Source: Mobula hypostoma
Taxonomy: Eukaryota
DNA length: 64,000 bases
Direction of reading: 5' to 3'
NCBI RefSeq assembly: GCF_963921235.1
Contig: NC_086108.1
Span: 29,328,001 to 29,392,000, forward strand
Positions 9,056-64,000 of this stretch are shown one piece after another. A program made the translations under genes and the position numbers. Every line of letters begins with the position of its first letter. Within the stretch, counting starts at the first letter, position 1. A model generated the notes under the pieces. The model saw only the letters and a list, made by a program, of their open reading frames with translations, made no database searches and was not told the origin of the DNA.

Positions 9056-11692
9056 TAGAAACATAGAAAATAGGTGCAGGAGTAGGCCATTCGGCCCTTC
9101 GATCCTGCACCGCCATTCTGTATGATGATGGCTGATCATCCAACTCAGAACCCTGTACCAGCCTTCCCTCCATACCCCCTGATCCCTTTAGCCACAAGGG
9201 CCATATCTAACTCCCTCATAAATATAGCTAATGAACTGGCCTCAACTGTTTCCTGTGGCAGAGAATTCCACAGATTCACCACTCTCTGTGTGAAGAAGGT
9301 TTTCCTCATCTCGGTCCTAAAAGGCTTCCCCTTTATCCTCAAACTGTGATCCCTCGTTCTGGACTTCCCCAACATCAGGAACAATCTTCCTGCACCGAGC
9401 CTGTCCAATCCCTTTAGGATTTTATACGTTTCAATCAGATCCCCCCTCAATCTTCTAAATTCCAACGAGTACAAGCCCAGTTCATCCAGTCTTTCTTCAT
9501 ATGAAAGTCCTGCCATCCCAGGAATCAACCTGGTGAACCTTCTTTGTACTCCCTCTATGGCAAGGAGTCTTTCCTCAGATTAGGGGACCAAAACTGCACA
9601 CAATACTCCAGGTGTGGTCTCACCAAGGCCTTGTACAACTGCAGTAGTACCTCCCTGCTCCTGTACTCGAATCCTCTTGCTATAAATGCCAGCATACCAT
9701 TCACCTTTTTCACCGCCTGCTGTACCTGCATGCCCACTTTCAATGACTGGTGTATAATGACACCCAGGTCTCGTTGCACCTCCCCTTTTCCTAATCGGCC
9801 ACCATTCAGATAATAATCTGCTTTCCTGCTTTTGCCACCAAAGTGGATAACCTCACATTTATCCACATTAAATTGCATCTGCCATGAATTTGCCCACTTA
9901 CCTAACGTATTCAAGTCACCCTGCACCCTCTTAGCATCCTCCTCACAGCTAACACTGCCGCCCAGCTTCGTGTCATCCGCAAACTTGGAGATGCTGCATT
10001 TAATTCCCTCATCCAAGTCATTAATATATATTGTAAACAACTGGGGTCCCAGCATTGAGCCTTGCGGTACCCCACTAGTCACTGCCTGCCATTCTGAAAA
10101 GGTCCCGTTTATTCCCACTCTTTGCTTCCTGTCTGCCAACCAATTCTCTATCCACATCAATACCTTACCCCCAATACCGTGTGCTTTAAGTTTGCACACT
10201 AATCTCCTGTGTGGGACCTTGTCAAAAGCCTTTTGAAAATCCAAATATACCACATCCACTGGTTCTCCTCTATCCGTTCTACTAGTTACATCCTCAAAAA
10301 ATTCTATGAGATTCGTCAGACATGATTTTCCTTTCACAAATCCATGCTGACTTTGTCCGATCATTTCACCGCTTTCCAAATGTGCTGTTATCACATCTTT
10401 GATAACTGACTCCAGCAGTTTCCCCACCACCGATGTTAGGCTAACCGGTCTGTAATTCCCTGGTTTCTCTCTCCCTCCTTTTTAAAAAGTGGGGTTACAT
10501 TAGCCACCCTCCAATCCTCAGGAACTAGTCCAGAATCTAAAGAGTTTTGAAAAATTATCACTAATGCATCCACTATTTCTTGGACTACTTCCTTAAGCAC
10601 TCTGGGATGCAGACCATCTGGCCCTGGGGATTTATCTGCCTTTAATCCTGTCAATTTACCTAACACCACGTCCCTACTAACATGTATTTCCCTCAGTTCC
10701 TCCATCTCACTGGACCCTCTGTCCCCTACTATTTCTGGAAGATTATTTATGTCCTCCTTAGTGAAGACAGAACTAAAGTAATTATTCAATTGGTCTGCCA
10801 TGTCCTTGCTCCCCATAATCAATTCACCTGTTTCTGTCTGTAGGGGACCTACATTTGTCTTAACCAATCTCTTTCTTTTCACATATCTATAAAAGCTTTT
10901 ACAGTCAGTTTTTATGTTCCCTGCCAGTTTTCTCTCATTATCTTTTTTCCCCTTCCTAATTAAGCCCTTTGTTCTCCTCTGCTGAACTCTGAATTTCTCC
11001 CAGTCCTCAGGTGAGCAACTTTTTCTGGCTAATTTGTATGCTTCTTCTTTGGAATTGATACTATCCCTAATTTCCCTTGTCAGCCATGGGTGCACTACCT
11101 TCCTTGATTTATTCTTTTGCCAAACTGGGATGAACAATTGTTGTAGTTCATCCATGTGATCTTTAAATGCTTGCCATTGCATATCTACCATCAACCCTTT
11201 AAGTGTCATTTGCCAGTCTATCTTAGCTAATTCACGTCTCATACCTTCAAAGTTACCCTTCTTTCAGTTCAGAACCTTTGTTTCTGAATTAACTATGTCA
11301 CTCTCCATCTTAATGAAGAATTCCACCATATTATGGTCACTCTTACCCAAGGGGCCTCTCACGACAAGATTGCTAATTAATCCTTCCTCATTGCTCAAAA
11401 CCCAGTCTAGAATAGCCTGCTCTCTAGTTGGTTCCTCGACATGTTGGTTCAAAAAACCATCCCGCATACATTCCAAGAAATCCTCTTCCTCAGCACCCTT
11501 TCGAATTTGGTTCACCCAATCTACATGTAGATTGAAGTCACCCATTATAACTGCTGTTCCTTTATTGCACACATTTCTAATTTCCTGTTTAATACCATCC
11601 CCAACCTCACTACTACTGTTAGGTGGCCTGTACACAACTCCCACCAGCGTTTTCTGCCCCTTAGTGTTATGCAGCTCTACCCATATCGATTC
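9056..11692 (-). mobile_element. CR1 LINE, 5'-truncated; ORF2 (APE C-part + RT) broken by frameshifts
   Basis: ORFs 11264-11698 (YRPP, MGDFN, SDHN), 10436-11242 (KSPGPDG), 9555-10430 (YLDFQKAFDKV, GVPQGS, KFADDTK), 9145-9528; tail tagaaacatagaa. Confidence 0.95.
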
Positions 11693-11834: not shown

Positions 11835-14708
11835 ATCAAAAATGGTACCAAATATGGTACTCAAGGTGTTGTATCTCAATACGAGGAGTATAAGAAATAA
11901 GGTGGATGATCTTGTTGCACTGTTACAGATTGCCAGATATGATGTTGTGGCCATCACTGAATCATGGCTGAAGGATTGTTGTAGCTGGGAGCTGAATGTC
12001 CAAGGTTACACGTTGTATTGGAGGTATAGGAAGGTAAGCAGAGGGGGTGATGTGGCTCTACTGGTAAAGAATGGCATCAAATCAGTAGAAAGATGCAATA
12101 TAGGATCAGAAAATGTTGAATCCTTGTGGATAGAGTTAAGAAACTGCAGGGTAAAAGGACGTTGATGGCTGGGAGATGGACCACAAATTACAACAGGAAA
12201 TAGAAAAGGCATGTCAAAAGGGCAATGTTATGATAGTCATAGGAGATTTTAACATGCAGGTCAATTGAGAAAATAAGGTTGGTAAAGCATCTGAAGGGAG
12301 TGAGTTCGTTGAATGTCTAAGAGATGACTTTTTAGAGCAGTTTGTTGTTGAGCCTACTCGATTGGGTGCCATGTAATGAACCGGAGGTGATTAGGGAGTT
12401 TAAGGTAAAAGAACCATTAGGAACTAGTAATCACAAAATGATTGAATTCAACTTGAAATTTGATAGGGAGAATATAAAGTCTGATGTAGCAGTATTTCAG
12501 TGGAGTAACGGAAAATACAGTGGTATGAGAGAGGAGTAGGCCAAGTAAATTGGAAGGAGCTGCTGGCAGGGATGTCAGCAGAGCTGCAATGGTGCGCATC
12601 TCTGGGAAAAATAAGGAAGGTACAGGACATGCGTATTCCAAAAATGAAGTAATACTCAAATGGCAAAATAGTACAACCGTGGCTGACGAGGGAAGTCAAT
12701 GCTAATGTAAAATCAAAAGAGAGGGCATACAACAAAGCAAAAAATAGTGGGAAGATGGAGGATTGGGAAGTTTTTAAAAACCTACAGAGAGCATCTAAAA
12801 GAATCATTAGAAGGGAAAAGATGAAATATGAAAGCAAGCTAGCAAATAATATCAAAGTGCACAGTGAAACCTTTTTCAAGTGTGTAAAAAATAAAAGAGA
12901 GATGAGAGTAGATATAGAACTGCTAAAAAATGAGGCAGGAGAAATAATAACGGGGGACAAGGAGATGGCAGATGGATCTCATGAGTATTTTGCATCAGTG
13001 TTTGCATTGGAAGACACTAACAGTATGCCTGATGTTGTAGTGTGGAAGGAAGAGAAGTGGGTGCAGTTACTATTACAAGGGAGAAGGTGCTCAAAAAGCT
13101 GAAAGACCTAAAAGTACATAAATCTTCTGGACCAGATGAACTGCACCCTAGGGTTCTGAAAGAGGTAGCATTAGGGATTGTGGCAGCATTAGAAATTATC
13201 TTTCAAAAATCATTGGACTCTGGCATGGTGCCAGAGGACTGGAAAATTGCAAATGTCACTCCACTCTCTAAGAAAGGAGGAAGACAGCAGAAAGAAAATT
13301 ATAGCCTGGTTAGCCTGACTTCAGTGGTTGGGAAGACCTCAGAGTCAATTGTTAAGGATGAGGTGGTGGAGTACTTGGTGATACAGGTCAAGATAGGATA
13401 AAGTCAGCATGGTTTCCTTAAGGGAAAATCCTGCCTGATGAACCAGTTGGAATTTGTTGAGGAGATTACAAGTAGGATAGATAAAGGGGATGCAGTGGAT
13501 ATTGTATAATTGGACTTTCAGAAGGCCTTTGACAAGGTGCCACACATGAGGTTGCTTACCAAGTTAAGAGCCTGTGGTATTACAGGAAAGTTACTAACTT
13601 GGTTCGAGCATTGGCTGATTGAAAGAAAGCAGCGGAGGGTGGGGGGGAAACAAAAGGATTCTTGTCTAGTTGGCTGCCAGTGACTAGTGGTGATCCGCAG
13701 GAGTCGGTGTTGGGACCGCCTCTTTTTATGCTGTATATAAATGATTTAGATGATGAAATAGATGGCTTTGTTGCCAAATTTGCAGATGATACAAAGAGTG
13801 ATGGAGGGGCAGGTAGTGTTGAGGAAACAGGTAGGATGCAGGAGGAATTAGACAGATTAGGAGAATGGGCAAGAAAGAGGCAAATAAAATATAATGTTGG
13901 AAAATGCATGGTAATGTACTTTGGTAGTAGAAATAAATGTGCGGACTATTTTCTAAATGGGGAGAAAATCCAGGAATCTGAGATGCAGAGGGACTTGGGA
14001 GTCCTTGTGCAGAACAGCCTAAAGGTTAACTTGTAGGTTGAGTCGGTGGAGAGGAAGGCAAATGCAATGTTAGCATTCATTTCAAGAGGTCTAGAATATA
14101 AGAGCAGGGATGCGATGCTGAGGCTTTATAAGGCACTAGCGAGGCCTCGCCTTGAGTATTGTGTACAGTTTGGACTCCTCATCTTAGAAGAGATATGATG
14201 GCTTTGGAGAGGGTCCAGAGGAGGTTCACAAAGATGATTCCAGGAATGAAAGGTTTATCAATACGAGGAACATTTGACGGCTCTGGGTCTGTACTTGCTG
14301 GAATGTAGAAGTATGTGGATCTCATTGAAACCTTTTGAATGTTGAAAGGCCTAGACAGAGTAGATGTGGAAAGGATGTTTCCCATGGTGGGGGAGTCTAG
14401 GACAAGAGGACGCAGCCTCAGGATAGAGGGGTGTCCATTCAAAACAGAGATGCAGAGAAATTTCTTTAGCCAGAGTGTGGTGAATTTGTGGAATTTGTTG
14501 TCACTTGCAGCTGTGGTGGCCAGGTTGTTGGGTGCATTTAAGGCAGAGATTGATAGGTTCTTGATTGGACATGGCATTAAAGGTTATGGAGAGAAGGCCG
14601 GGAAATGGGGTTGAGGAGGAGAAAAAAAAAAGGATCAGCCATGATTACGTGGTGGAGCAGACTCGATAGGCAAAATGGGCTAATTCTGCTCCTATGTCAT
14701 GGTCTTAT
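11835..14708 (+). mobile_element. CR1 LINE of a different subfamily, nearly whole ORF2, many stops and frameshifts
   Basis: LKVLYLNTRSIRNK, ITESWL, GDFN, KSSGPDELHPRVLKE, KFADDTK, VVNLWNLL; short TSD aaccaaa at 11828-11834 and 14709-14715. Confidence 0.93.
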
Positions 14709-27165: not shown

Positions 27166-27935
27166 CAACCTTGCACTCGGGCAGTTGTATGGCCATCAAA
27201 TATCCTCTGCCCAGACCCCAATTTCTCCTCTCACCACTCAGAGCGATCCAACCTTGCACTCGGGCAGTTGTATGGCCATCAAATATCCTCTGCCCAGACC
27301 CCAATTTCTCCTCTCACCACTCAGAGCGATCCAACCTCGCACTCGGGCAGTTGTATGGCCATCAAATATCCTCTGCCCAGACCCCAATTTCTCCTCTCAC
27401 CACTCAGAGCGATCCAACCTCGCACCCGGGCAGTTGTATGGCCATCAAATATCCTCTGCCCAGACCCCAATTTCTCCTCTCACCACTCAGAGCGATCCAA
27501 CCTCGCACCCGGGCAGTTGTATGGCCATCAAATATCCTCTGCCCAGACCCCAATTTCTCCTCTCACCACTCAGAGCGATCCAACCTTGCACTCGGGCAGT
27601 TGTATGGCCATCAAATATCCTCTGCCCAGACCCCAATTTCTCCTCTCACCACTCAGAGCGATCGAACCTTGCACTCGGGCAGTTGTATGGCCATCAAATA
27701 TCCTCTGCCCAGACCCCAATTTCTCCTCTCACCACTCAGAGCGATCCAACCTCGCACCCGGGCAGTTGTATGGCCATCAAATATCCTCTGCCCAGACCCC
27801 AATTTCTCCTCTCACCACTCAGAGCGATCGAACCTTGCACTCGGGCAGTTGTATGGCCATCAAATATCCTCTGCCCAGACCCCAATTTCTCCTCTCACCA
27901 CTCAGAGCGATCCAACCTCGCACCCGGGCAGTTGT
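27166..27935. repeat. 83-bp minisatellite, 9 full units plus a partial
   Basis: Unit caaccttgcactcgggcagttgtatggccatcaaatatcctctgcccagaccccaatttctcctctcaccactcagagcgatc with period 83 (27171, 27254 ... 27918). Confidence 0.97.
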
Positions 27936-32356: not shown

Positions 32357-33117
32357 AGAAACACAATCATGGCAGGGTTTACATGCCGTTACTTCCTATG
32401 AGGCGAAACTTAACATCATAAATGGCTGTGATACTTAACTCAATCCCTTTTATGCACACTTGTAAAATAGAATTACAATAAGCTCAATCCCTTTTATGCA
32501 CACATGAAAGATAGAATTACAGACCATTGCAAACCTCCGCAGCATCCGGCAATCCAACTGCTTCAAAATGGCATCAATCATACCAGTGCTCCAGAAGCAC
32601 AGAACTTCGAGAGCTACCTCAATGACTATCGCTCATAGCTCTCATATCTACTGTCTTGAAGTGCTTGGAGAGAATGGCCATTGCTGAAGTTAAGTCTGGC
32701 CTGAGCAAGGACCTCGACCCGCTGTAATTTGCCTACAATTTACAAAATGCAGTGGATACAGTCCCACTGGGTCTCCATTTGGCTTTGGTGCACCTGGACA
32801 ACAGCAATACTTACATCCAGGGGTGCAGTGCTGCTGGAGCTCACTGGAGCACCGCTCCGGCACCTCTGTAAAAAGAAAAGTCAAAATAAACAAGCGGGGA
32901 ATTTAACAGCGGCCGCATATTAAATAGAGGGAATTTTACTGAAGCAGGGGTTGGGGAGAAGGGCTGGTGGCTGGTGGGGAAAATACCACTAATAACATTA
33001 GGATATTTGATCATTTTTGGTGAAATCCTGGAGCTGTGACTGTTTTTGACCCGTTGTTGTCCCAGCATACCCTGCTGTAGCCTCCCGCCATTTCACAGAT
33101 CCTCAGTCTCTCTCCAG

Positions 33118-33540
33118 CACTCATTGTTTGCCGAGAAAATAAAAATCTTAGATCTTTTGAAAAGTGGCACGTCGCTTGCCGAAGTGGGCCGTAAGGTTGG
33201 TGAGAACGAATTGAGCATTCGCACAATAAAGCAGAAAGAAGCTGAAATTCATGCAAGTGTTACTGCTACCCCTACAACGGCAAAAATAGTCTCTCTGGTT
33301 CGTGATAAAGTGCTTGCAAAGACTGACAAAGCATTAAGTGTGTGGCTAGAGGACATGTCACAGAAGTATATCCCTGTTGATGGCAAAATTATGCGTGAGA
33401 AAGCACTTAGTCTCTATGAGCACTACTGTGATGGGGTTAAGGAGAGCGAGAGGAAGGAGTTTAAGGCTAGTACGGAATGGCTGGCTAGCTATGTAAAGCG
33501 CTACAGTCTCAAGAACTTAAATATCACGGGAGAATCAGCA
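33118..33540 (+). pseudogene. Tigger/pogo transposase N-terminal DNA-binding region (psq-type HTH + CENP-B HTH)
   Basis: EKIKILDLLKSG.S.AEVGR...SIRTIK...KALSVWLED..QK.IPVDGKIMREKALSLY...FKAS.EWL...KRYSLKN.NITGESA. Confidence 0.85.
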
Positions 33541-35300
33541 TGGTAGATGTACCAAGTATCCTATTATGGAGCCAATCGAAGTACACGCTTGAAGTCTCTC
33601 AGAAAAAAAAATTGTTGAACACAAACTATTAAAAGCTCACACTGCTGCTCTAAGTGTTAAAAATATAGCTATCAAAGATGCTCTTGGAAAATTATGTGAC
33701 ACCACGAATGCTTCGCATCTAAAGGCAACTTGTTCAATTTTTCGTTCTGCATATTATTTAGCTCAGAATGACAGACAATACTGTGATCACGTTGGCTTAT
33801 TGGAACTTAAAAAAAATGGTATTGACATTGGAATTGGACTGCATTCCGGCACTAGTGCTACGGAGATAATCACATAGCCATTAATATGAGAAAGAAAATT
33901 TGAAAGCATATCAAGCAGATAAATGGCAAATTTTCTGTTCTCATTGATGAATCAACAAGCCTGAGCGTTAAGACTGTCCTAATAGTTTATTTGAAATGTG
34001 GAAGTGATAAGGAAGGTGATCCCCATTTTATGTTTTTAGATCTAATTGAACTGCCTGATCAGAAAGCTGCAACTATTGCTAAGCATCTATTGAACTGTCT
34101 CAATAACTATGGGTTTGATTACTCTTACTTGAAACAGAACCTTGTAGCATTTGCTAGTGATGGGGCGAGCGTAATGCTCAGTGTCAAATCTGGTGTTGCC
34201 ACAATTCTAAAGGAACATTACCCTGATGTGATAATTTGGTACTGTCTTAGTCACAGATTAGAACTTGATTCGGTGAGAGAAGTTAATGGAATAAATTATT
34301 TTCAATCATTTATGGACAAATTGTACTTGTTTACAGTAGATACCTCTAAATCAAAAGGAACTGTCTGAATGTGCCTCTCAACTAGAACAACAAATTTGCA
34401 ATATAGGTCGTGTTCTGGGCACCAGGTGGGTAGCTAGCTCGTTTCCAACAGTTCCAGCAGTCTGGCAAAATTATGAAGCACTGTGTTTTCATCTTGAAAA
34501 AGCCATGAAGGATGAAACAAGATCTGGGAGTGACAGAAAACCCTATGAAGGACTGTTGAAAAGACTCTCTTCAGAACAGTTTCTATTGGACTTAGCTGTA
34601 ATGTATGACACTTGGTTTACTGTCAGAGTGTTTACAGAAACGCACTACTACGATTCTTTATGCAGACAAACTGATCCAGCGGAGCATAAGATCACTGCAC
34701 AGACTGAAAGAGCAACCTGGTACAAAAACTCTAGAAGCTCAAGAGGCAGTTGAAAAGGGGAAGTTTGGAGAAATTACCTTAGCAAGCAATAACAAAATTG
34801 TCTCCATTAATTATCTACAGTTTCTTACTAGTCTTATAAACAATTTGCAGCACTGTATATTCATGGCAACATCCTTGAAAGGTTCTCAAACTTCTAAACC
34901 TCAAAGTATGTATAAATCCCTGCTAAATGAAATGTGTGTCCTTGATAAAGATAACTGGCCTGCTGAAATATCGCCTAATTATGGAGAAGCTGCAATATCA
35001 TCTCCCTGTAAGAGGTTTAAGCTTTCCTCTTCCTCTGTAATAAATGCCTTCAGTGGATCGTGAATGCCGCATCCCCCAAGATTTACGCCCATTACTGAGC
35101 TGTTCACAAGTTATTCCTATTAGTACTGCTGAGTGTGAGAGAGGATTCAGTCACATGAACTTTATAATAACAACAACATGCTCAAGGATTCTCATAGATC
35201 ATGTAGCAGCACTTACGTTTGTTAAACTACATGGACCTGCTTTTGCTCAGTGGAACCCTGAGCCGTATGTCACATCATGGTTCGGTACCACAGATCAGCA
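33541..35300 (+). pseudogene. hAT transposase (KIAA1586/ZNF862-like), disrupted
   Basis: SLRKKIVEH, FSVLIDEST, FASDGASVML, WYCLSHRLEL, GTRW, C-terminal dimerisation VIPISTAECERGFS; several stops and frameshifts. Confidence 0.88.
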
Positions 35301-35684
35301 GACAACACCAGGACAAGGGTTGCTGCAGACCCCCGAATACATATTACACCTGACTCTTTGTGGAAATTATTGTGAAACTTCTCATTGGTGGCATTTGGTA
35401 AGTAGGTAATTACTTTTAAATTGGTAAAATACATGATTACCGTCTTTTTCTTTACTTGCTTGATAATTATAATTTATGATAATTAGTGAGTTCAACCATG
35501 CAATACTTTATCATAATATTAAATTAAGTATTATATTTTTTATTGTACCAGTTATACACTGAAATTTAGTGATCGGCTATAATCTTGTTAATGTCTTAAC
35601 TCTCACTATGTTTCTGTGGAGCTTTGGAGTTCAGATATTTCTTTCATCTTGGTTTAGTGCTTGACATTATAAGAGGCCCTATTC

Positions 35685-35796
35685 ATATATATATGTCACA
35701 CCCTATTTGTGTACCTGCTCGTTACATGAATGGGGCAAGGAAGTTGTCCAGTACATGAAATGAGCAGGTACACAAATTGGGTGTGACATATATATA
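35685..35796. repeat. About 110-bp imperfect palindrome in a (TA)n context (MITE-like)
   Basis: atatatgtcacaccctatttgtgtacctgctc ... gagcaggtacacaaattgggtgtgacatatat. Confidence 0.85.
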
Positions 35797-36929
35797 GAGA
35801 GGATATAGGAAATGGCAAGCATTTTGTCAGTTCCGGCACCTAAAAAATTAGCACTGCACCCCTGCTTACATCAGGCTGCTGTTTACTGATTACAGCTCAG
35901 CGTTCAACACTATCATACCCTCAGTACTAATCAACAAACTTCAAAATCTGGGCCTCTGTACCTCCCTCTGCAACTGGATCCTTGACTTCACTATCAGTAG
36001 ACCACAGTAAGTGCAGATCGGGAATAACATCTCTTTGCTGACTATCACCACAGGTGCACCTCAATGGTGCATGCTTAGCCCACTGCTCTACTGTCTCTAC
36101 ACTCATGACTATGTGATTAGGCACAGCTCAAACACTATCTATAAATTTGCCACTGTCATTGGCAGAATCGCGAATGGAAATAAGGAAGCAAACAGGACTG
36201 AGATAGATTGGATTGTTGGCATTGCAACAATAGACTTGCACTCAACGTCAGCAAGACCAATGAATTGATTGTAGACTGCAGGAAGGGGAAGCCAGAAGAA
36301 CACATGCCAGTCCTAATTGAGAAGTCAGTGGTGGAAAGAATGAGCAGCTTTAAATTCCTGGGGGAAAGCATCTATACCGGGCCCAGAACATTGATGGTTT
36401 GGTGTGTCACCAAAGACCCTTGCAAATTTCTACAGATGTACAGTGGAGAGCATTCTGACTGGTTGCACCACACCTAGTATAGAAGCTCCAATGCACAGGA
36501 TAAAAGAAGCTTACAAAGGGTGTAGGCTCAGCCAGCTCCATCATGGGCACAACCTTCCCCACTATCAAAAGCATCTTCAAAAGCACGCCTCAAGAAGGTG
36601 GCCTCCATCATTAATGACCCTCATCATCTGGCACATACCATTTTCCCATCCCTACCATTGAGGGGCAGAGGGTACAGGAGCCTGAAAACCCACAATCATC
36701 ATCTTAGGAACAGTTTCTTCCCCTCCACCATCAGATTTCTGAACAGTCCATGAACCCATGAACACTACCTCACGATTTCACTTTTGTACTATTTATATTT
36801 TGTAATTTATAGTCGTTTCTATGCCTTGCAATCCACTGCTGCCACAGTAACAAACCTCACGGCATAGAAATCTGATTCAGATCAAATCCCCATAGGTTTT
36901 ATGACTGATTTCCAACAGGGGCAATATTT

Positions 36930-55396: not shown

Positions 55397-58300
55397 ATAG
55401 AAACATAGAAAATAGGTGCAGGAGTAGGCCATTCGGCCCTTCGAGCCTGCACCGGCATTTATTATGATCATGGCTGATCATCCAACTCAGAACCCTGCAC
55501 CATACCCTCTGATCCCCATAGCCACAAGGGCCATATCTAACTCCCTCTTAAATATAGCCAATGAACTGGCCTCAACTGTTTCCTGTGACAGAGAATTCCA
55601 CAGATTCACCACTCTCTGTGTGAAGAAGTTTTTCCTAATCTCAGTCCTAAAGGGCTTCCCCTTTATCCTCAAACTGTGACCCCTCGTTCTGGACTTCCCC
55701 AACATCGGGAACAATCTTCCTGCATCTAGCCTGTCCAATCCCTTTAGGATTTTATACGTTTCAATCAGATCCCCCCTCAATCTTCTAAATTCCAACGAGT
55801 ACAAGCCTAGTTCATCCAGTCTTTCTTCGTATGAAAGTCTGGTGAACCTTCTTTGTACTCCCTCTATGGCAAGGATGTCTTTCCTCAGATTAGGGGACCA
55901 AAACTGCACACAATACTCCAGGTGTGGTCTCACCAAGGCCTTGTACAACTGCAGTAATACCTCCCTTCTCCTGTACTCGAATCCTCTCGCTATAAATGCC
56001 AGCATACCATTCGCCTTTTTCACCGCCTGCTGTACCTGCATGCCCACTTTCAATGACTGGTGTATAATGACACCCAGGTCTCGTTGCACCTCCCCTTTTC
56101 CTAATCGGCCACCATTCAGATAATAATGTTTTCCTATTTTTGCCACCAAAGTGGATAACTTCACAGTTATCCACATTAAATTGCATCTGCCATGAATTTG
56201 CCCAGCCACCCAACCTATCCAAGTCACCCTGTATCCTCTTAGCATCCTCCTCACAGCTAACACTGCCGCCCAGCTTCGTGTCATCCGCAAACTTGGAGAT
56301 GCTGCATTTAATTCCCTCATCCAAGTCATTAATATATATTATAAACAACTGGGGTCCCAGCACTGAGCCTTACGGTACCCCACTAGTCACTGCCTGCCAT
56401 TCTGAAAAGGTCCCGTTTATTCCCACTCTTTGCTTCCTGTCTGCTAACCAATTCTCTATGAACATCAATACCTTAGCCCCAATACCGTGTGCTTTAAGTT
56501 TGCACACTAATCTCCTGTGTGGGACCTTGTCAAAAGCCTTTTGAAAATCCAAATATACCACATCCACTGGTTCTCCCCTATCCACTCTACTAGTTACATC
56601 CTCAAAAAATTCTATGAGATTCATCAGACATGATTTTCCTTTCACAAATCCATGCTGACTTTGTCCGATGATTTCACCACTTTCCAAATGTGCTGTTATC
56701 ACATCTTTGATAACTGACTCGAGCAGTTTCCCCACCACCGACATTAGGCTAACCGGTCTATAACTCCCCGGTTTCTCTCTCCCTCCTTTTTTAAAAAGTG
56801 GGGTTACATTAGCCACCCTCCAATCCTCAGGAACTAGTCCAGAATCTAATGAGTTTTGAAAAATTATCACTAATGCATCCAATATTTCTTGGACTACTTC
56901 CTTAAGCACTCTGGGATGCAGACCATCTGGCCCTGGGGATTTATCTGCCTTCAATCCCTTCAATTTACCTAACACCACTTCCCTACTAACACGTATTTCG
57001 CTCAGTTCCTCCATCTCACTGGACCCTCTGTCCCCTACTATTTCTGGAAGATTATTTATGTCCTCCTTAGTGAAAACAGAACCAAAGTAATTATTCAATT
57101 GGTCTGCCATGTCCTTGCTCCCCATAATCAATTCACCTGTTTCTGTCTGTAGGGGACCTACAGTTGTCTTTACCAGTCTTTTCCTTTTTACATATCTATA
57201 AAAACTTTTACAGTCAGTTTTTATGTTCCCTGCCAGTTTTCTCTCATAATCTTTTTTCCCCTTCCTAATTAGGCCCTTTGTCCTCCTCTGCTGAACTCTG
57301 ACTTTCTCCCAGTCCTCAGGTGAGCCACTTTTTCTGGCTAATTTGTATGCTTCTTCTTTGGAATTGATACTATCCCTAATTTCTCTTGTCAGCCACGGTT
57401 GCACTACCTTCCTTGATTTATTCTTTTGCCAAACTGGGATGAACAATTGTTGTAGTTCATCCATGCAATCTTTAAATGCTTGCCATTGCATATCCACCGT
57501 CAATCCTTTAAGTGTCATTTGCCAGTCTATCTTAGCTAATTCACATCTCATACCTTCAAAGTTACCCCTCTTTAAGTTCAGAACCTTTGTTTCTGAATTA
57601 ACTATGTCACTCTCCATCTTAATGAAGAATTCCACCATATTATGGTCACTCTTACCCAAGGGGCCTCTCACGACAAGATTGCTAATTAACCCTTCCTCAT
57701 TGCTCAAAACCCAGTCTAGAATAGCCTGCTCTCTAGTTGGTTCCTTGACGTGTTGGTTCAAAAAACCATCCCGCATACATTCCAGGAAATCCTCTTCCTC
57801 AGCACCTTTACCAATTTGGTTCATCCAGTCTACATGTAGATTGAAGTCACCCATTATAACTGCTGTTCCTTTATTGCACACATTTCTAATTTCCTGTTTA
57901 ATACCATCTCCGACCACACTACTACTGTTAGGTGGCCTGTACACAACTCCCACCAGCGTTTTCTGCCCCTTAGTGTTATGCAGCTCTACCCATATCAATT
58001 CCACATCTTCCCGGCTTATGTCCTTCCTTTCTATTGCGTTAATCTCATCTTTAACCAGCAACGCCACCCCACCTCCTTTTCTTTCATGTCTATCCCTCCT
58101 GAATATTGAATATCCCTGAACGTTGAGCTCCCATCCTTGGTCATCCTGGAGCCATGTCTCTGTGATCCCAACTATATCATAATCATTAATAGCAACTGCA
58201 CTTTCAATTCATCCACCTTACGAATGCTCCTTGCATTGACACACAAAGCCTTCAGGCGCTCTTTTACAACTCTCTTAGCCCTTATACAATTATGTTGAAA

Positions 58301-58853: not shown

Positions 58854-59557
58854 AATATGACCTTAGGAGGAGAGCAAGTGATAAAAATATTGTTGTTACA
58901 GGTTTATTTTTAGTTTTTATTTTGTGTTTACTGGAGATTAGAGACAAAAAGCACCAGCAACACCTGGTGTGAGTACATGGCGATCAACACCAGCAATATT
59001 GTCAATATAGCTCATTTATATCATGTGAGAATGTCCATGAACAGAAATGGAATGGGAATCATCACTATTATTGAAACAAAAAAATATGAAATAAAACAAG
59101 ATTATGAACATATTTGAACCTACTTTTACTGGAATAGTTTACTTTCCTTTCAGTTTTTGACTCTCTGCTACTGCTCTCTAAGGAATACCCTACTGGGTGA
59201 AGCATCCATTTGCAAATAGGTTTTCTGCCTTCTCCACTTGCATTACTCGTTTCCTTGTGTGTAATAATCAATCATTTCCTGGAAGTTGCTGTCAGAAGCT
59301 CACCTCCTTCCTCAGTTCAGCACTAGACATTAGATAGATAGATATACTTTATTGATCCCGAGGGAAATTGGGTTTTGTTACAGCTACACCAAACAAGAAT
59401 AGAGCATAAATATCGCAATACAAAACCCACAAACAAACAAACAACAATATGCAAACTATAAACAACAGGAATTCTGCAGATGCTGAAAATTCAAGCAACA
59501 CACATCAAAGTTGCTGGTGAATGCAGCAGGCCAGGCAGCATCTCGAGGAAGAGGTAC

Positions 59558-59593
59558 AGTCGACGTTTCAGGCCGAGACCCTTCGTCAGGACT
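59558..59593 (-). ncRNA. Minimal type I hammerhead ribozyme motif
   Basis: Minus strand AGUC-CUGACGA-A-GGGUCUCGGCCU-GAAACGUC-GACU. Confidence 0.75.
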
Positions 59594-59890
59594 AACTGAA
59601 GGAAGAGTGAGTAAGGGATTTGAAAGTTGGAGGGGGAGGGAGAGATCCAAAATGATAGGAGAAGACAGGAGGAGGAGGGATAGAGCCAAGAGCTGGACAA
59701 GTGATAGGCAAAAGGGGATACGAGAGGATCATGGGACAGGAGGTCCGGGAAGAAAGACAAGGTGGGGAGGGGGAACCAGAGGATGGGCAAGAGGTATATT
59801 CAGAGGGACAGAGGGAGAAAAAGGAGAGTGAGAGAAAGAATGTGTGCATAAAAATGAGTAACAGATGGGGTACGAGGGGAAGGTGGGGCC

Positions 59891-60975
59891 TTAGCGGAAG
59901 TTAGAGAAGTCGATGTTCATGCCATCAGGTTGGAGGCTAACCAGACGGAATATAAGGTGTTGTTCCTCCAACCCGAGTGTGGCTTCATCTTTACAGTAGA
60001 GGAGGCCGTGGATAGACATGTCAGAATGGGAATGGGATGTGGAATTAAAATGTGTGGCCACTGGGAGATCCTGCTTTCTCTGGCGGACAGAGCGTAGATG
60101 TTCAGCAAAGCGGTCTCCCAGTCTGCGTCGGGTCCCGCCAATATATAAAAGGCCACATCGGGAGCACCGGACGCAGTATATCACCCCGGTCGACTCACAG
60201 GTGAAGTGTTGCCTCACCTGGAAGGACTGTTTGGGGCCCTGAATGGTGGTAAGGGAGGAAGTGTAAGGGCATGTGTAGCACTTGTTCCGCTTACACGGAT
60301 AAGTGCCAGGAGGGAGATCAGTGGGGAGGGATGGGGGGGACGAATGGACAAGGGAGTTGTGTAGGGAGCGATCCCTGCGGAATGCAGAGAGACGGGGGGA
60401 GGGAAAGATGTGCTTAGTGGTGGGATCCCGTTGGAGGTGGCGGAAGTTACGGAGAATAATATGTTGGACCCGGAGGCTGGTGGGGTGGTAGGTGAGGACC
60501 AGGGGAACCCTATTCCTAGTGGGGTGGCGGGAGGATGGAGTGAGAGCAGATGTACGTGAAATGGGGGAGATGCGTTTAAGGGCAGAGTTGATAGTGGAGG
60601 AAGGGAAGCCCCTTTCTTTAAAAAAGGAAGACATCTCCCTCGTCCTAGAATGAAAAGCCTCATCCTGAGAGCAGATGCGGCGGAGACAGAGGAATTGTGA
60701 GAAGGGGATGGCGTTTCTGCAAGAGACAGGCTGAGAAGAGGAATAGTCCAGATAGCTGTGAGAGTCAGTAGGCTTATAGTAGACATCAGTGGATAAGCTG
60801 TCTCCAGAGACAGAGACAGAAAGATCTAGAAAGGGGAGGGAGGTGTCGGAAATGGACCAGGTAAACTTGAGGGCAGGGTGAAAGTTGGAGGCAAAGTTAA
60901 TAAAGTCAACGAGTTCTGCATGCGTGCAGGAAGCAGCGCCAATGCAGTCGTCGATGTAGCGAAGGAAAAGTGGGG
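59891..60975 (-). pseudogene. PLE ORF fragment (RT YIDD through complete GIY-YIG endonuclease)
   Basis: LRYIDD; CKRNKCYTC; GVIYCVRCSRCGLLYIGGTRRRLGDRFAEH...EQHLIFRL.SLQPDGMN. Confidence 0.9.
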
Positions 60976-62689
60976 TACCTCCTCTTATTTACCCCTCGAT
61001 CGTGACCCCACTAAGGAGCACCAGGCCATTGTCTCCCACACCATCACCGACTTTATCCGCTCAGGGGATCTCCCACCCACTGCTACCAACCTTATAGTTC
61101 CCACACCCCGCACTTCCCGTTTCTACCTCCTACCCAAGATCCACAAACCTGCCTGTCCTGGCCGACCTATTGTCTCAGCTTGCTCCTGCCCCACCGAACT
61201 CATTTCTGCATACCTCGACACTGTTTTATCACCCCTTGTTCAATCCCTTCCGACCTATGTTCGTGACACTTCTCACGCTCTTAAACTTTTCGATGATTTT
61301 AAGTTCCCTGGCCCCCACCGCTTTATTTTCACCATGGATGTCCAGTCCTTATATACTTACATCCCCCATCAGGAAGGTCTCAAAGCTCTACGCTTCTTTT
61401 TGGATTCCAGACCTAATCAGTTCCCCTCTACCACCACTCTGCTCCGTCTAGCGGAATTAGTCCTTACTCTTAATAATTTCTCCTTTGGCTCCTCCCACTT
61501 CCTCCAGACTAAAGGTGTAGCTATGGGCACCCGTATGGGTCCTAGCTATGCCTGCCTTTTTGTTGGGTTTGTGGAACAATCTATGTTCCGTGCCTATTCT
61601 GGTATCTGTCCCCCACTTTTCCTTCGCTACATCGACGACTGCATTGGCGCTGCTTCCTGCACGCATGCAGAACTCGTTGACTTTATTAACTTTGCCTCCA
61701 ACTTTCACCCTGCCCTCAAGTTTACCTGGTCCATTTCTGACACCTCCCTCCCCTTTCTAGATCTTTCTGTCTCTGTCTCTGGAGACAGCTTATCCACTGA
61801 TGTCTACTATAAGCCTGCTGACTCTCACAGCTATCTGGACTATTCCTCTTCTCAGCCTGTCTCTTGCAAAAATGCCATCCCCTTCTCACAATTCCTCCGT
61901 CTCTGCGGCATCTGCTCTCAGGATGAGGCTTTTAGGACGAGGGAGATGTCTTCCTTTTTTAAAGAAAGGGGCTTCCCTTCCTCCACTATCAACTCTGCCC
62001 ATAAACGCATCTCCCCCATTTCATGTACATCTGCTCTCACTCCATCCTCCCGCCACCCCACTAGGAATAGGGTTCCCCTGGTCCTCACCTACCACCCCAC
62101 CAGCCTCCGGGTCCAACATATTATTCTCCGTAACTTCCGCCACCTCCAACGGGATCCCACCACTAAGTACATCTTTCCCTCCCCCCCTCTCTCTGCATTC
62201 CGCAAGGATCGCTCCCTACACAACTCCCTTGTCCATTCGTCCCCCCCATCCCTCCCCACTGATCTCCCTCCTGGCACTTATCCGTGTAAGCGGAACAAGT
62301 GCTACACATGCCCTTACACTTCCTCCCTTACCACCATTCAGGGCCCCAAACAGTCCTTCCAGGTGAGGCAACACTTCACCTGTGAGTCGACCGGGGTGAT
62401 ATACTGCGTCCGGTGCTCCCAATGTGGCCTTTTATATATTGGCGAGACCTGATGCAGACTGGGAGACTGCTTTGCTGAACACATACGCTCTGTCCGCCAG
62501 AGAAAGCAGGATCTCCCAGTGGCCACACATTTTAATTCCACATCCCATTCCCATTCTGACATGTCTATCCACGGCCTCCTCTACTGTAAAGATGAAGCCA
62601 CACTCAGGTTGGAGGAACAACACCTTATATTCCGTCTGGGTAGCCTCCAACCTGATGGCATGAACATCGACTTCTCTAACTTCCGCTAA
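60976..62689 (+). pseudogene. PLE RT + GIY-YIG ORF, 5'-truncated, one premature stop at 62450-62452
   Basis: FYLLPKIHK, GRPIVS, MDVQSLYT, GVAMGTRMGPSYA, RYIDD, FLDL, VIYC..C..C...YIGET; TGA where the other arm has CGA. Confidence 0.93.
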
Positions 62690-62986
62690 GGCCCCACCTT
62701 CCCCTCGTACCCCATCTGTTACTCATTTTTAGGCACACATTCTTTCTCTCACTCTCCTTTTTCTCCCTCTGTCCCTCTGAATATACCTCTTGCCCATCCT
62801 CTGGTCCCCCCCCCCCACCTTGTCTTTCTTCCCGGACCTCCTGTCCCATGATCCTCTCGTATCCCCTTTTGCCTATCACTTGTCCAGCTCTTGGCTCTAT
62901 CCCTCCCCCTCTTCTCTTCTCCTATCATTTTGCACCTCCCCCTCCCCCTCCAACTTTCAAATCCCTTACTCACTCTTCCTTCAGTT

Positions 62987-63022
62987 AGTCCTGACGAAGG
63001 GTCTCGGCCTGAAACGTCGACT
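62987..63022 (+). ncRNA. Minimal type I hammerhead ribozyme motif
   Basis: AGUC-CUGACGA-A-GGGUCUCGGCCU-GAAACGUC-GACU; predicted cleavage after C63018. Confidence 0.75.
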
Positions 63023-64000
63023 GCACCTCTTCCTACAGATACTGCTTGGCCTGCTGCGTCCACCAGCAACTTTGATATGCAAACTATGCCAGGTGGAAAT
63101 AAGTCCAGGACCAGCCTATTGGCTCAGGGTGTCTGACCCTCCACGGGAGAAGCTGCAAAGTTCGATGGCCACAGGCAAGGACAACCTCCCATGACGCCCA
63201 GTGTTGTATCTCAGTGGAATATGGCCAGAGTCCAACAGCAAAAAGTTCAATATCCAGTCTAGAAACACATTCCTCGATCGTAATATGACCAGGATTGCAC
63301 CATCCGTTGTTAACCAGAACACCAAGTCCCCAACTCCTTTACGCTTACCGCTCTCAGTGCACTTCCGGTCAGCCCGAACGGACTGGAAGGCCTCCATGGA
63401 AAAGTTTTGGTCGGGTATGTCCTCGTGCAGCCCCGTCTCAGTAAAACACATAACACTCTACTCCCGAAATGTTCTCTGACTCCTGGCTAGGGCCGTCAAC
63501 TCGTCCATTTTATTACCCACCAAACTCCTCTTCTCCCTAAGTTTCTGTTGTCTCGACCTGGTCCTCTTTCCTCAGCTCTGTGATCCCCCTCTGAATCCTC
63601 TGTGTGTTTTCCTCCAGATTTCAGCAGGAATGTCCGCCACTCTGTTCGCTAAACTGGCCGGCATAAGCGCAATCAACTGGATCCTGGAATAAACAATGCA
63701 ACCATACTGCTGCCCCGCTAATGAAACATGTCCAAATGTAACTATTTCCAGCGCTAAAAACCCAAATCAAACTCTCTCCACCAGCATGTTAGAGAGGGTG
63801 CAGCTTTAACGTGTTACCATGAAAAGAAAATACAACAAATAACGTAAGTTAAAAAAGTAAGAAGACTAGTCGGAACGGCTGTAACAGGCTGCATGCACGT
63901 CTGGTGCATGCGCACTATTTTGGTAAATTCAGTTTCTCTATTAATCCAGCCAGTTCCATCCAACTCTACTAAATATTTCATGTTCAGAATCTAGAATAAT

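Follow-up and report, generated by a model that had tools for sequence, protein, structure and literature searches.

How does the DNA-binding region of one transposase come to be read in the same frame as the catalytic core of another? The question is raised by a 3,047-bp element at positions 32818-35864 of a 64,000-nucleotide stretch of Mobula hypostoma DNA (NC_086108.1, positions 29,328,001 to 29,392,000), which is referred to in full as the window. By its ends, its target site duplication (TSD) and its catalytic motifs, this element is a hAT and not a Tigger. It can be likened to a defective hAT that has captured an insert and comes near the Pack-TIRs of animals; within it, an internal piece of a Tigger transposase gene stands where the N-terminal coding region of a KIAA1586-like hAT transposase should be. 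The element was inserted by hAT transposition, its N-terminal region was replaced, and the copy decayed.

A hAT element with Tigger coding DNA

The element is inserted into a long interspersed element (LINE), and its borders are those of a hAT: the two 15-bp terminal inverted repeats (TIRs) are complementary at 15 of 15 positions, in keeping with the short TIRs of hAT elements, and the expected 8-bp TSD, CTTACATC, is present on both sides. When the whole window was scanned for 12-bp inverted repeats bordered by an 8-bp direct repeat, four matches were obtained, namely this element and three palindromic 8-mers within one large inverted repeat. The insertion broke the LINE reverse-transcriptase frame, whose left part stops at 32817 (...DNSNTYI) and which resumes to the right of the insertion in a piece that matches RVT_1 (Pfam) only weakly (E 0.2) and is 68% like a LINE piece at 231-491.

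Similarity to hAT transposases begins at 33541, corresponding to W119 of P0212, the nearest full-length relative, and to W118 of the coelacanth proteins. From this point, the copy is identical to P0208, its nearest database protein, at 464 of 504 positions (92%), to P0212 at 478 of 593, and to P0215 (Latimeria XP_064412783.1) at 427 of 594. In Foldseek, the AlphaFold model of P0212 matches Hermes (4d1q, E 3e-10), and the catalytic D, D, CxxH, and E motifs are kept in the copy (LIDES, SDGAS, CLSH, and ECERGFS), as are the C-terminal motifs, with a Dimer_Tnp_hAT match (E 0.003) that lies under the curated cut-off. An intact transposase frame with a start is absent, as there are two stops (33544 and 33901), six frame changes (near 33610, 33868, 34330, 34611, 35050, and 35283), and no ATG upstream. 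Compared with other KIAA1586-like hATs (so named in databases and possibly of the Tip100 group; P0215, P0208, P0212, and Mobula hypostoma XP_062926722.1, here P0008), which resemble it in the DDE, CxxH, and C-terminal motifs, the element differs in having its first 118 residues replaced by Tigger sequence, eight disabling lesions, and no start codon. A separate observation concerns the hAT core at 33871-34326, which is 85% identical over 155 residues to a lobster gene model (P0001, Homarus americanus KAG7171321.1) and 72-74% identical to coelacanth copies. By sequence similarity, this match is a candidate for horizontal transfer; the gene model from the lobster is a chimera in its own right, and it may stem from contamination.

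The sequence in front of the hAT part belongs to a Tigger (pogo group) transposase gene. The frame at 33121-33543 is stop-free and runs ...ITGESA-W*MYQVSYYGANRSTRLKSLRKK, and within it, Tigger similarity extends over 33127/33133-33540, i.e., Tigger residues 25/27-162 (138 codons). This piece is identical to the full-length Tigger P0240 at 115 of 136 positions and to the ray gene model P0044 at 117 of 137, the range for Tigger proteins over 136-137 residues being 82-85%, and it shares with P0240, P0046, and the ray derivatives P0044 and P0045 the bipartite, CENP-B-type helix-turn-helix (HTH) region, recognized by Pfam as HTH_Tnp_Tc5 (E 3e-10) and CENP-B_N (E 0.007, under the curated cut-off). 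It differs from these in comprising residues ~25-162 only, with no start codon, no DDE_1 domain, and no recognizable Tigger end. No Tigger DDE domain was found anywhere in the window, which P0046 matches over residues 27-162 only, and a comparison with the full Tigger protein and 160 other HTH relatives found no second Tigger HTH there. Tigger elements have TIRs of their own and a TA duplication; no inverted-repeat pair lies at the edges of the fragment, though a single remnant Tigger end could escape this comparison. The hAT has lost no less than 354 bp of coding DNA and gained ~414 bp of Tigger DNA. At the joint, the flanking residues are A162-S163 in Tigger and E118-W119 in the hAT, where a 2-bp overlap is possible for some codon choices only.

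Several of these features had been proposed in an earlier, sequence-only reading of the same DNA. Its perfect TIRs and 8-bp TSD, its stop-free Tigger-type HTH region without a Tigger DDE domain, its missing hAT N-terminus, and the frame shared by both parts all hold, and the three profiles that it named (CENP-B_N, HTH_Tnp_Tc5, and Dimer_Tnp_hAT) are matched, the first and last under their cut-offs. The assignment to KIAA1586-type hATs is right as to family, but the segment WIAY that it gave is not what the relatives have, as these read ...NEWQTYQVSYYG. Likewise, the TAG at 33544-33546 and the frameshift near 33610 that it listed are both real, but the list was incomplete by a second stop and five more frame changes.

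Table 1. Features of the element and its immediate borders, in window positions
Feature	Position	Strand	Remarks
Left TSD copy, CTTACATC	32810..32817		
Left TIR, 15 bp	32818..32832	+	
Left subterminal segment, presumed hAT 5' non-coding DNA	32833..33126	+	CCGGCACC at 32857; without + strand ATG
Splice-acceptor-like pyrimidine tract ending CAG	33104..33117	+	In phase with the Tigger piece
Internal fragment of Tigger transposase gene, residues ~25-162	33127..33540	+	CENP-B_N (minus first 8 profile positions) and HTH_Tnp_Tc5
Decayed KIAA1586-like hAT transposase, Trp119 to C-terminus	33541..35375	+	
111-bp hairpin	35686..35796		
Right TIR, 15 bp	35850..35864	-	
Right TSD copy, CTTACATC	35865..35872		
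Resumed LINE reverse-transcriptase frame	35867..36007	+	Weak RVT_1, E 0.2

Two minor features lie in the end regions. The hairpin has 53-nt arms that are 87% complementary, lies in a TA-rich context, and has a folding z-score of -14; it may be a small TIR element that entered the right end of the hAT, or part of that end. In addition, one copy of the motif CCGGCACC lies near either end, both copies in the same orientation and the right one at 35833; it may be a subterminal binding site for the N-terminal zinc finger of the native hAT transposase.

The join within the hAT zinc finger

The position of the join bears directly on whether the two parts could have worked together. It falls inside the CCHH zinc finger of the hAT, so that, in P0212 numbering, C96 and C99 are lost while H145 and H151 are kept. 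Each of these four residues is invariant in 25 of the 25 relatives that cover its column in an alignment of 28 rows. AlphaFold models residues ~65-151 of P0212 with confidence as a single unit that has W119 at its center, and the nearest ESM Atlas clusters for the native finger (0.93) have a C17orf113-type finger or DUF4371, which is a lead only. The element, therefore, does not possess the N-terminal CCHH/CCHC finger of a hAT transposase. In Hermes, this finger is described as indispensable for transposition and as binding subterminal repeats (PMC10368747).

A start codon is missing as well. No ATG occurs on the + strand of 32818-33140, and the first one in frame is at Tigger residue 101, within the second HTH. 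Remnants of a hAT or Tigger N-terminus in 32818-33140 were considered and rejected, as only short, weak matches in scattered frames were obtained. The pyrimidine-rich, acceptor-like tract to which the sequence-only reading had drawn attention does exist, ending 10-13 bases ahead of the Tigger fragment and in phase with it, but the background on this strand is 2.4 such sites per kb of the window. Lacking a start codon and one half of its zinc finger, the joined frame most likely never gave a working enzyme.

The open reading frame of the Tigger piece does not speak against this. At the lesion density of the hAT part (8 in 1,832 bp), the probability that a 420-bp piece carries none is 0.16-0.20, and the private changes in the HTH are distributed almost at random: conserved columns are hit by 4 of the 15, where 5.4 would be expected by chance, and one of those hit is a glycine conserved at 96% (Tigger residue 141). 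The open HTH is, therefore, no sign of selection.

How the Tigger fragment may have been acquired

We favor, with a probability of roughly 0.45, an internal deletion of the hAT that was filled by a copied Tigger fragment during gap-filling repair, in frame by chance, leaving a patch at this locus. The first step of this sequence of events, the landing of a KIAA1586-like hAT in the LINE by ordinary cut-and-paste, is shown by the TIRs and TSD. A break inside the hAT would then have been repaired by copying ~410 bp from a Tigger copy elsewhere, probably through template switching. The copied DNA replaced codons 1-118 of the hAT, the start codon included; the in-frame join would be fortuitous, and the copy would have decayed neutrally thereafter. 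As hAT sequence was lost where Tigger sequence was gained and neither a recognizable Tigger end nor a Tigger DDE domain is left, one template switch suffices, which makes gap-filling simpler than a nested insertion. The captures reported for animal TIR elements are mostly single-copy gap-filling products with a median microhomology of 2 bp, multicopy captures being given as 4 of 281 in this survey of animal genomes, and as 3 of 23 in frog (PMC8277862). Judged from these base rates, the patch is most likely confined to this locus.

Among the closest known systems are the Pack-TIRs of animals (Tan et al. 2021, PMC8277862), in which both TIRs surround a copied piece of 100-5,000 bp and for which a gap-filling origin has been proposed. 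As described there, they are defined by an insert that is not itself from a transposable element and has one identifiable parent. In contrast, the insert here is Tigger coding sequence, in frame, and no parent for it was found in the window. The element falls outside the definition because its insert is itself transposon DNA.

Several observations weigh against the gap-filling explanation: (i) both HTH units are contained in the fragment, which is in sense and in frame and occupies the site of the hAT's own DNA-binding region. Under a crude random model, a sense, in-frame piece with both units has a probability of 0.0024, a figure that ignores that the scan picked out the most striking rearrangement. 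(ii) The acceptor-like site lies in phase just ahead of the fragment. (iii) In the survey cited above, 57% of gap-fill donors were situated no more than 15 kb away (PMC8277862), but no Tigger copy that could have served as donor was found in the 64 kb of the window. (iv) Both parts appear equally decayed, with private residues at 15 of 137 positions (10.9%) in the Tigger part and 49-55 of 583 (8.4-9.4%) in the hAT part (P 0.4-0.6), which fits equally well a chimera as old as the insertion. The end branches (0.12 for the Tigger part and 0.075 for the hAT part) come from trees with almost no supported branches; dating the two parts against each other gave no significant difference.

Whether the same join exists elsewhere is central to the alternatives. 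Among 1,001 candidate proteins, a junction-spanning query returned 11, with a coverage of at most 85%, i.e., the HTH only, in a search of limited sensitivity. None of 281 proteins (184 with the HTH and 93 with the hAT core) joined the HTH to this hAT core in one chain, in searches that are again limited in sensitivity and include few decayed elements. Of 55 proteins that reach the junction region, 42 have the native half of the finger; in the remaining 13, which are too remote or too short, it cannot be recognized. A degenerate junction pattern had no match in metagenome contigs, a collection unlikely to hold ray DNA, and peptide-pattern scans gave none in viral contigs, 139 stretches in metagenome contigs, and 37 in prokaryote genomes, none of the latter two sets being confirmed. 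The TIR pattern matched one viral contig, without hAT or Tigger coding similarity, which we took as chance. Since the viral, metagenome, and prokaryote collections are all unlikely to contain ray DNA, these blank scans say little. In a search of sequencing runs, 20 of the 23 rows listed hold part of the element; as the output does not tell which part, this is not evidence on the junction. Among the listed runs, 14 rows from 8 coded organisms share 0.21-0.46 of the words of the element, none reaches half, and no RNA row is present. No description of a hAT-Tigger hybrid transposase was found in paper searches that cover open-access text.

The most serious rival, doubtful though it is, holds that the accident happened a single time in a different copy, and that the joined element was then propagated as a non-autonomous subfamily, mobilized in trans by an intact hAT transposase and including the copy described here. 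It must be taken seriously because of the perfect ends, the length of end sequence, and a precedent. Some 300 bp of left and 490 bp of right end sequence remain, which is more than the ~220 bp per end that Hermes is reported to need (PMC10368747). The equal decay of both parts is as this explanation would have it, and a randomly sampled copy will more often come from a large family. The precedent is MER6, described as a mariner-derived miniature inverted-repeat transposable element with a piece of a short interspersed element that was amplified in mammals (PMC6887750). Both are non-autonomous DNA transposons with a piece of an unrelated mobile element; according to that description, MER6 is multicopy and non-coding, whereas the piece here is a transposase domain, known from one locus. 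Ricksha, which is listed in the Repbase review, was considered as a further precedent and set aside, as no description of it as composite was found there. Against spread of the join stand the reported rarity of multicopy captures and the lack of a second junction, although the latter was sought only in collections unlikely to hold ray DNA.

It is improbable that a whole Tigger jumped into the resident hAT and that two later deletions took the Tigger ends, the DDE domain, and the hAT N-terminus, so that the two frames came to be joined by chance. In a window this dense in repeats, nested insertions are frequent, the hAT within the LINE being one, and the two parts are of similar age. However, two deletions are needed and neither Tigger end can be traced, there being no inverted-repeat pair at the fragment and no DDE domain; moreover, a Tigger nested in the hAT would be expected to be the younger of the two, but its branch length points to slightly more decay (not significantly so). 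The sequence-only reading had offered this nested insertion with deletion alongside a cross-superfamily domain swap. Its identification of the parts and of their common frame stands, and nested insertion is still possible; the domain swap has been weakened, because the join lies inside the finger, 32818-33140 contains no ATG, and no database protein joins both parts. Copy-in repair, which we favor, was not among its readings.

Such a swap would mean that a Tigger double HTH replaced the finger region in a ray hAT lineage and that the chimeric transposase, expressed through the acceptor at 33117 or a start since lost, went on transposing autonomously and spread under its own power. We regard this as very improbable. 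It would suit such a swap that the fragment takes in both HTH units neatly, is in sense and in frame, and stands where the native DNA-binding region was, as would the in-phase acceptor-like site and the intact catalytic D, D, E, and CxxH. The stop at 33544 is no obstacle in itself, since P0212 has Gln at this position and the stop may have arisen later. Gene models of rays and a skink also show this Tigger HTH in fusion with further proteins, one of them a different hAT. Yet half a zinc finger would have been left attached to the enzyme, although the finger of Hermes is reported to be indispensable (PMC10368747), and a Tigger HTH would be expected to recognize Tigger ends rather than these. 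The element has no ATG-bearing exon, no fused protein was found among the 281, and all 42 close relatives with a detectable region keep the native finger. If such a swap had taken place, the end-recognition module and catalytic core of different eukaryotic superfamilies would be recombinable in nature, which would counter the Hermes-based view of the hAT finger as indispensable and bear on the origins of transposase architecture and on the engineering of end specificity. On the present evidence, the element is a decayed copy with an internal patch and a tidy example of repair shuffling transposase domains, of modest importance unless the junction proves to be multicopy.

Finally, an assembly error joining two abundant repeats, as both parts are, is hardly credible, since unrelated sequences would have had to be wrongly joined twice, 414 bp apart, with matched TIRs and TSD still preserved, and the window contains no N.

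Ray gene models with the same Tigger domain and the surrounding window

The closest named proteins of the element parts are from rays (Mobula and Hemitrygon), and among the relatives of the Tigger piece, three ray gene models of 1,150-1,181 amino acids stand out: P0044 (Mobula hypostoma XP_062887396.1), P0045 (Hemitrygon akajei XP_072909805.1), and P0235 (Hypanus sabinus XP_059829023.1). Each has on one chain the Tigger double HTH, a GTF2I repeat, and a different hAT domain, one with a Spin-doc finger. They have many isoforms, come from three genera, and have HTH branches of 0.005-0.06 compared with 0.12 for the window copy. They look like a ray host-transposase fusion paralleling mammalian GTF2IRD2, and they may deserve more attention than the element in the window.

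An origin of the Tigger fragment from this ray gene was considered and rejected. The fragment shares A26, D33, V48, and E132 with the GTF2I-fused Tigger copies of rays; S42 and I113, which are common to the three aligned Tigger-GTF2I copies, are not shared, and the window has the residues of free Tigger there. The fragment therefore appears to derive from the same subfamily but not from the GTF2I-fused gene, a point at which the tree offers no resolution. Outside the rays, a skink gene model (P0049, Tiliqua scincoides; also P0047) combines a SCAN domain with the same Tigger HTH and ends just past the HTH.

Host-transposase fusion genes, as described by Cosby et al. (bioRxiv 10.1101/2020.05.07.082677), resemble the element in that a transposase DNA-binding domain is joined to other protein domains, often through transposon splice acceptors. 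They are spliced, selected host genes, whereas the element is a DNA-level join of two transposases in a decayed copy.

Other repeats in the window are (i) an inverted duplication of 1.48 kb at 59501-60978 and 61608-63079, with arms 97% identical and a 630-bp spacer; (ii) a 2.6-kb repeat present twice, at 9056-11692 and 55398-58001 (94.6% identity), with an inverted relative (66%) at 13109-14695; and (iii) a tandem array at 27166-27935 with an 83-bp period and ~98% identity.

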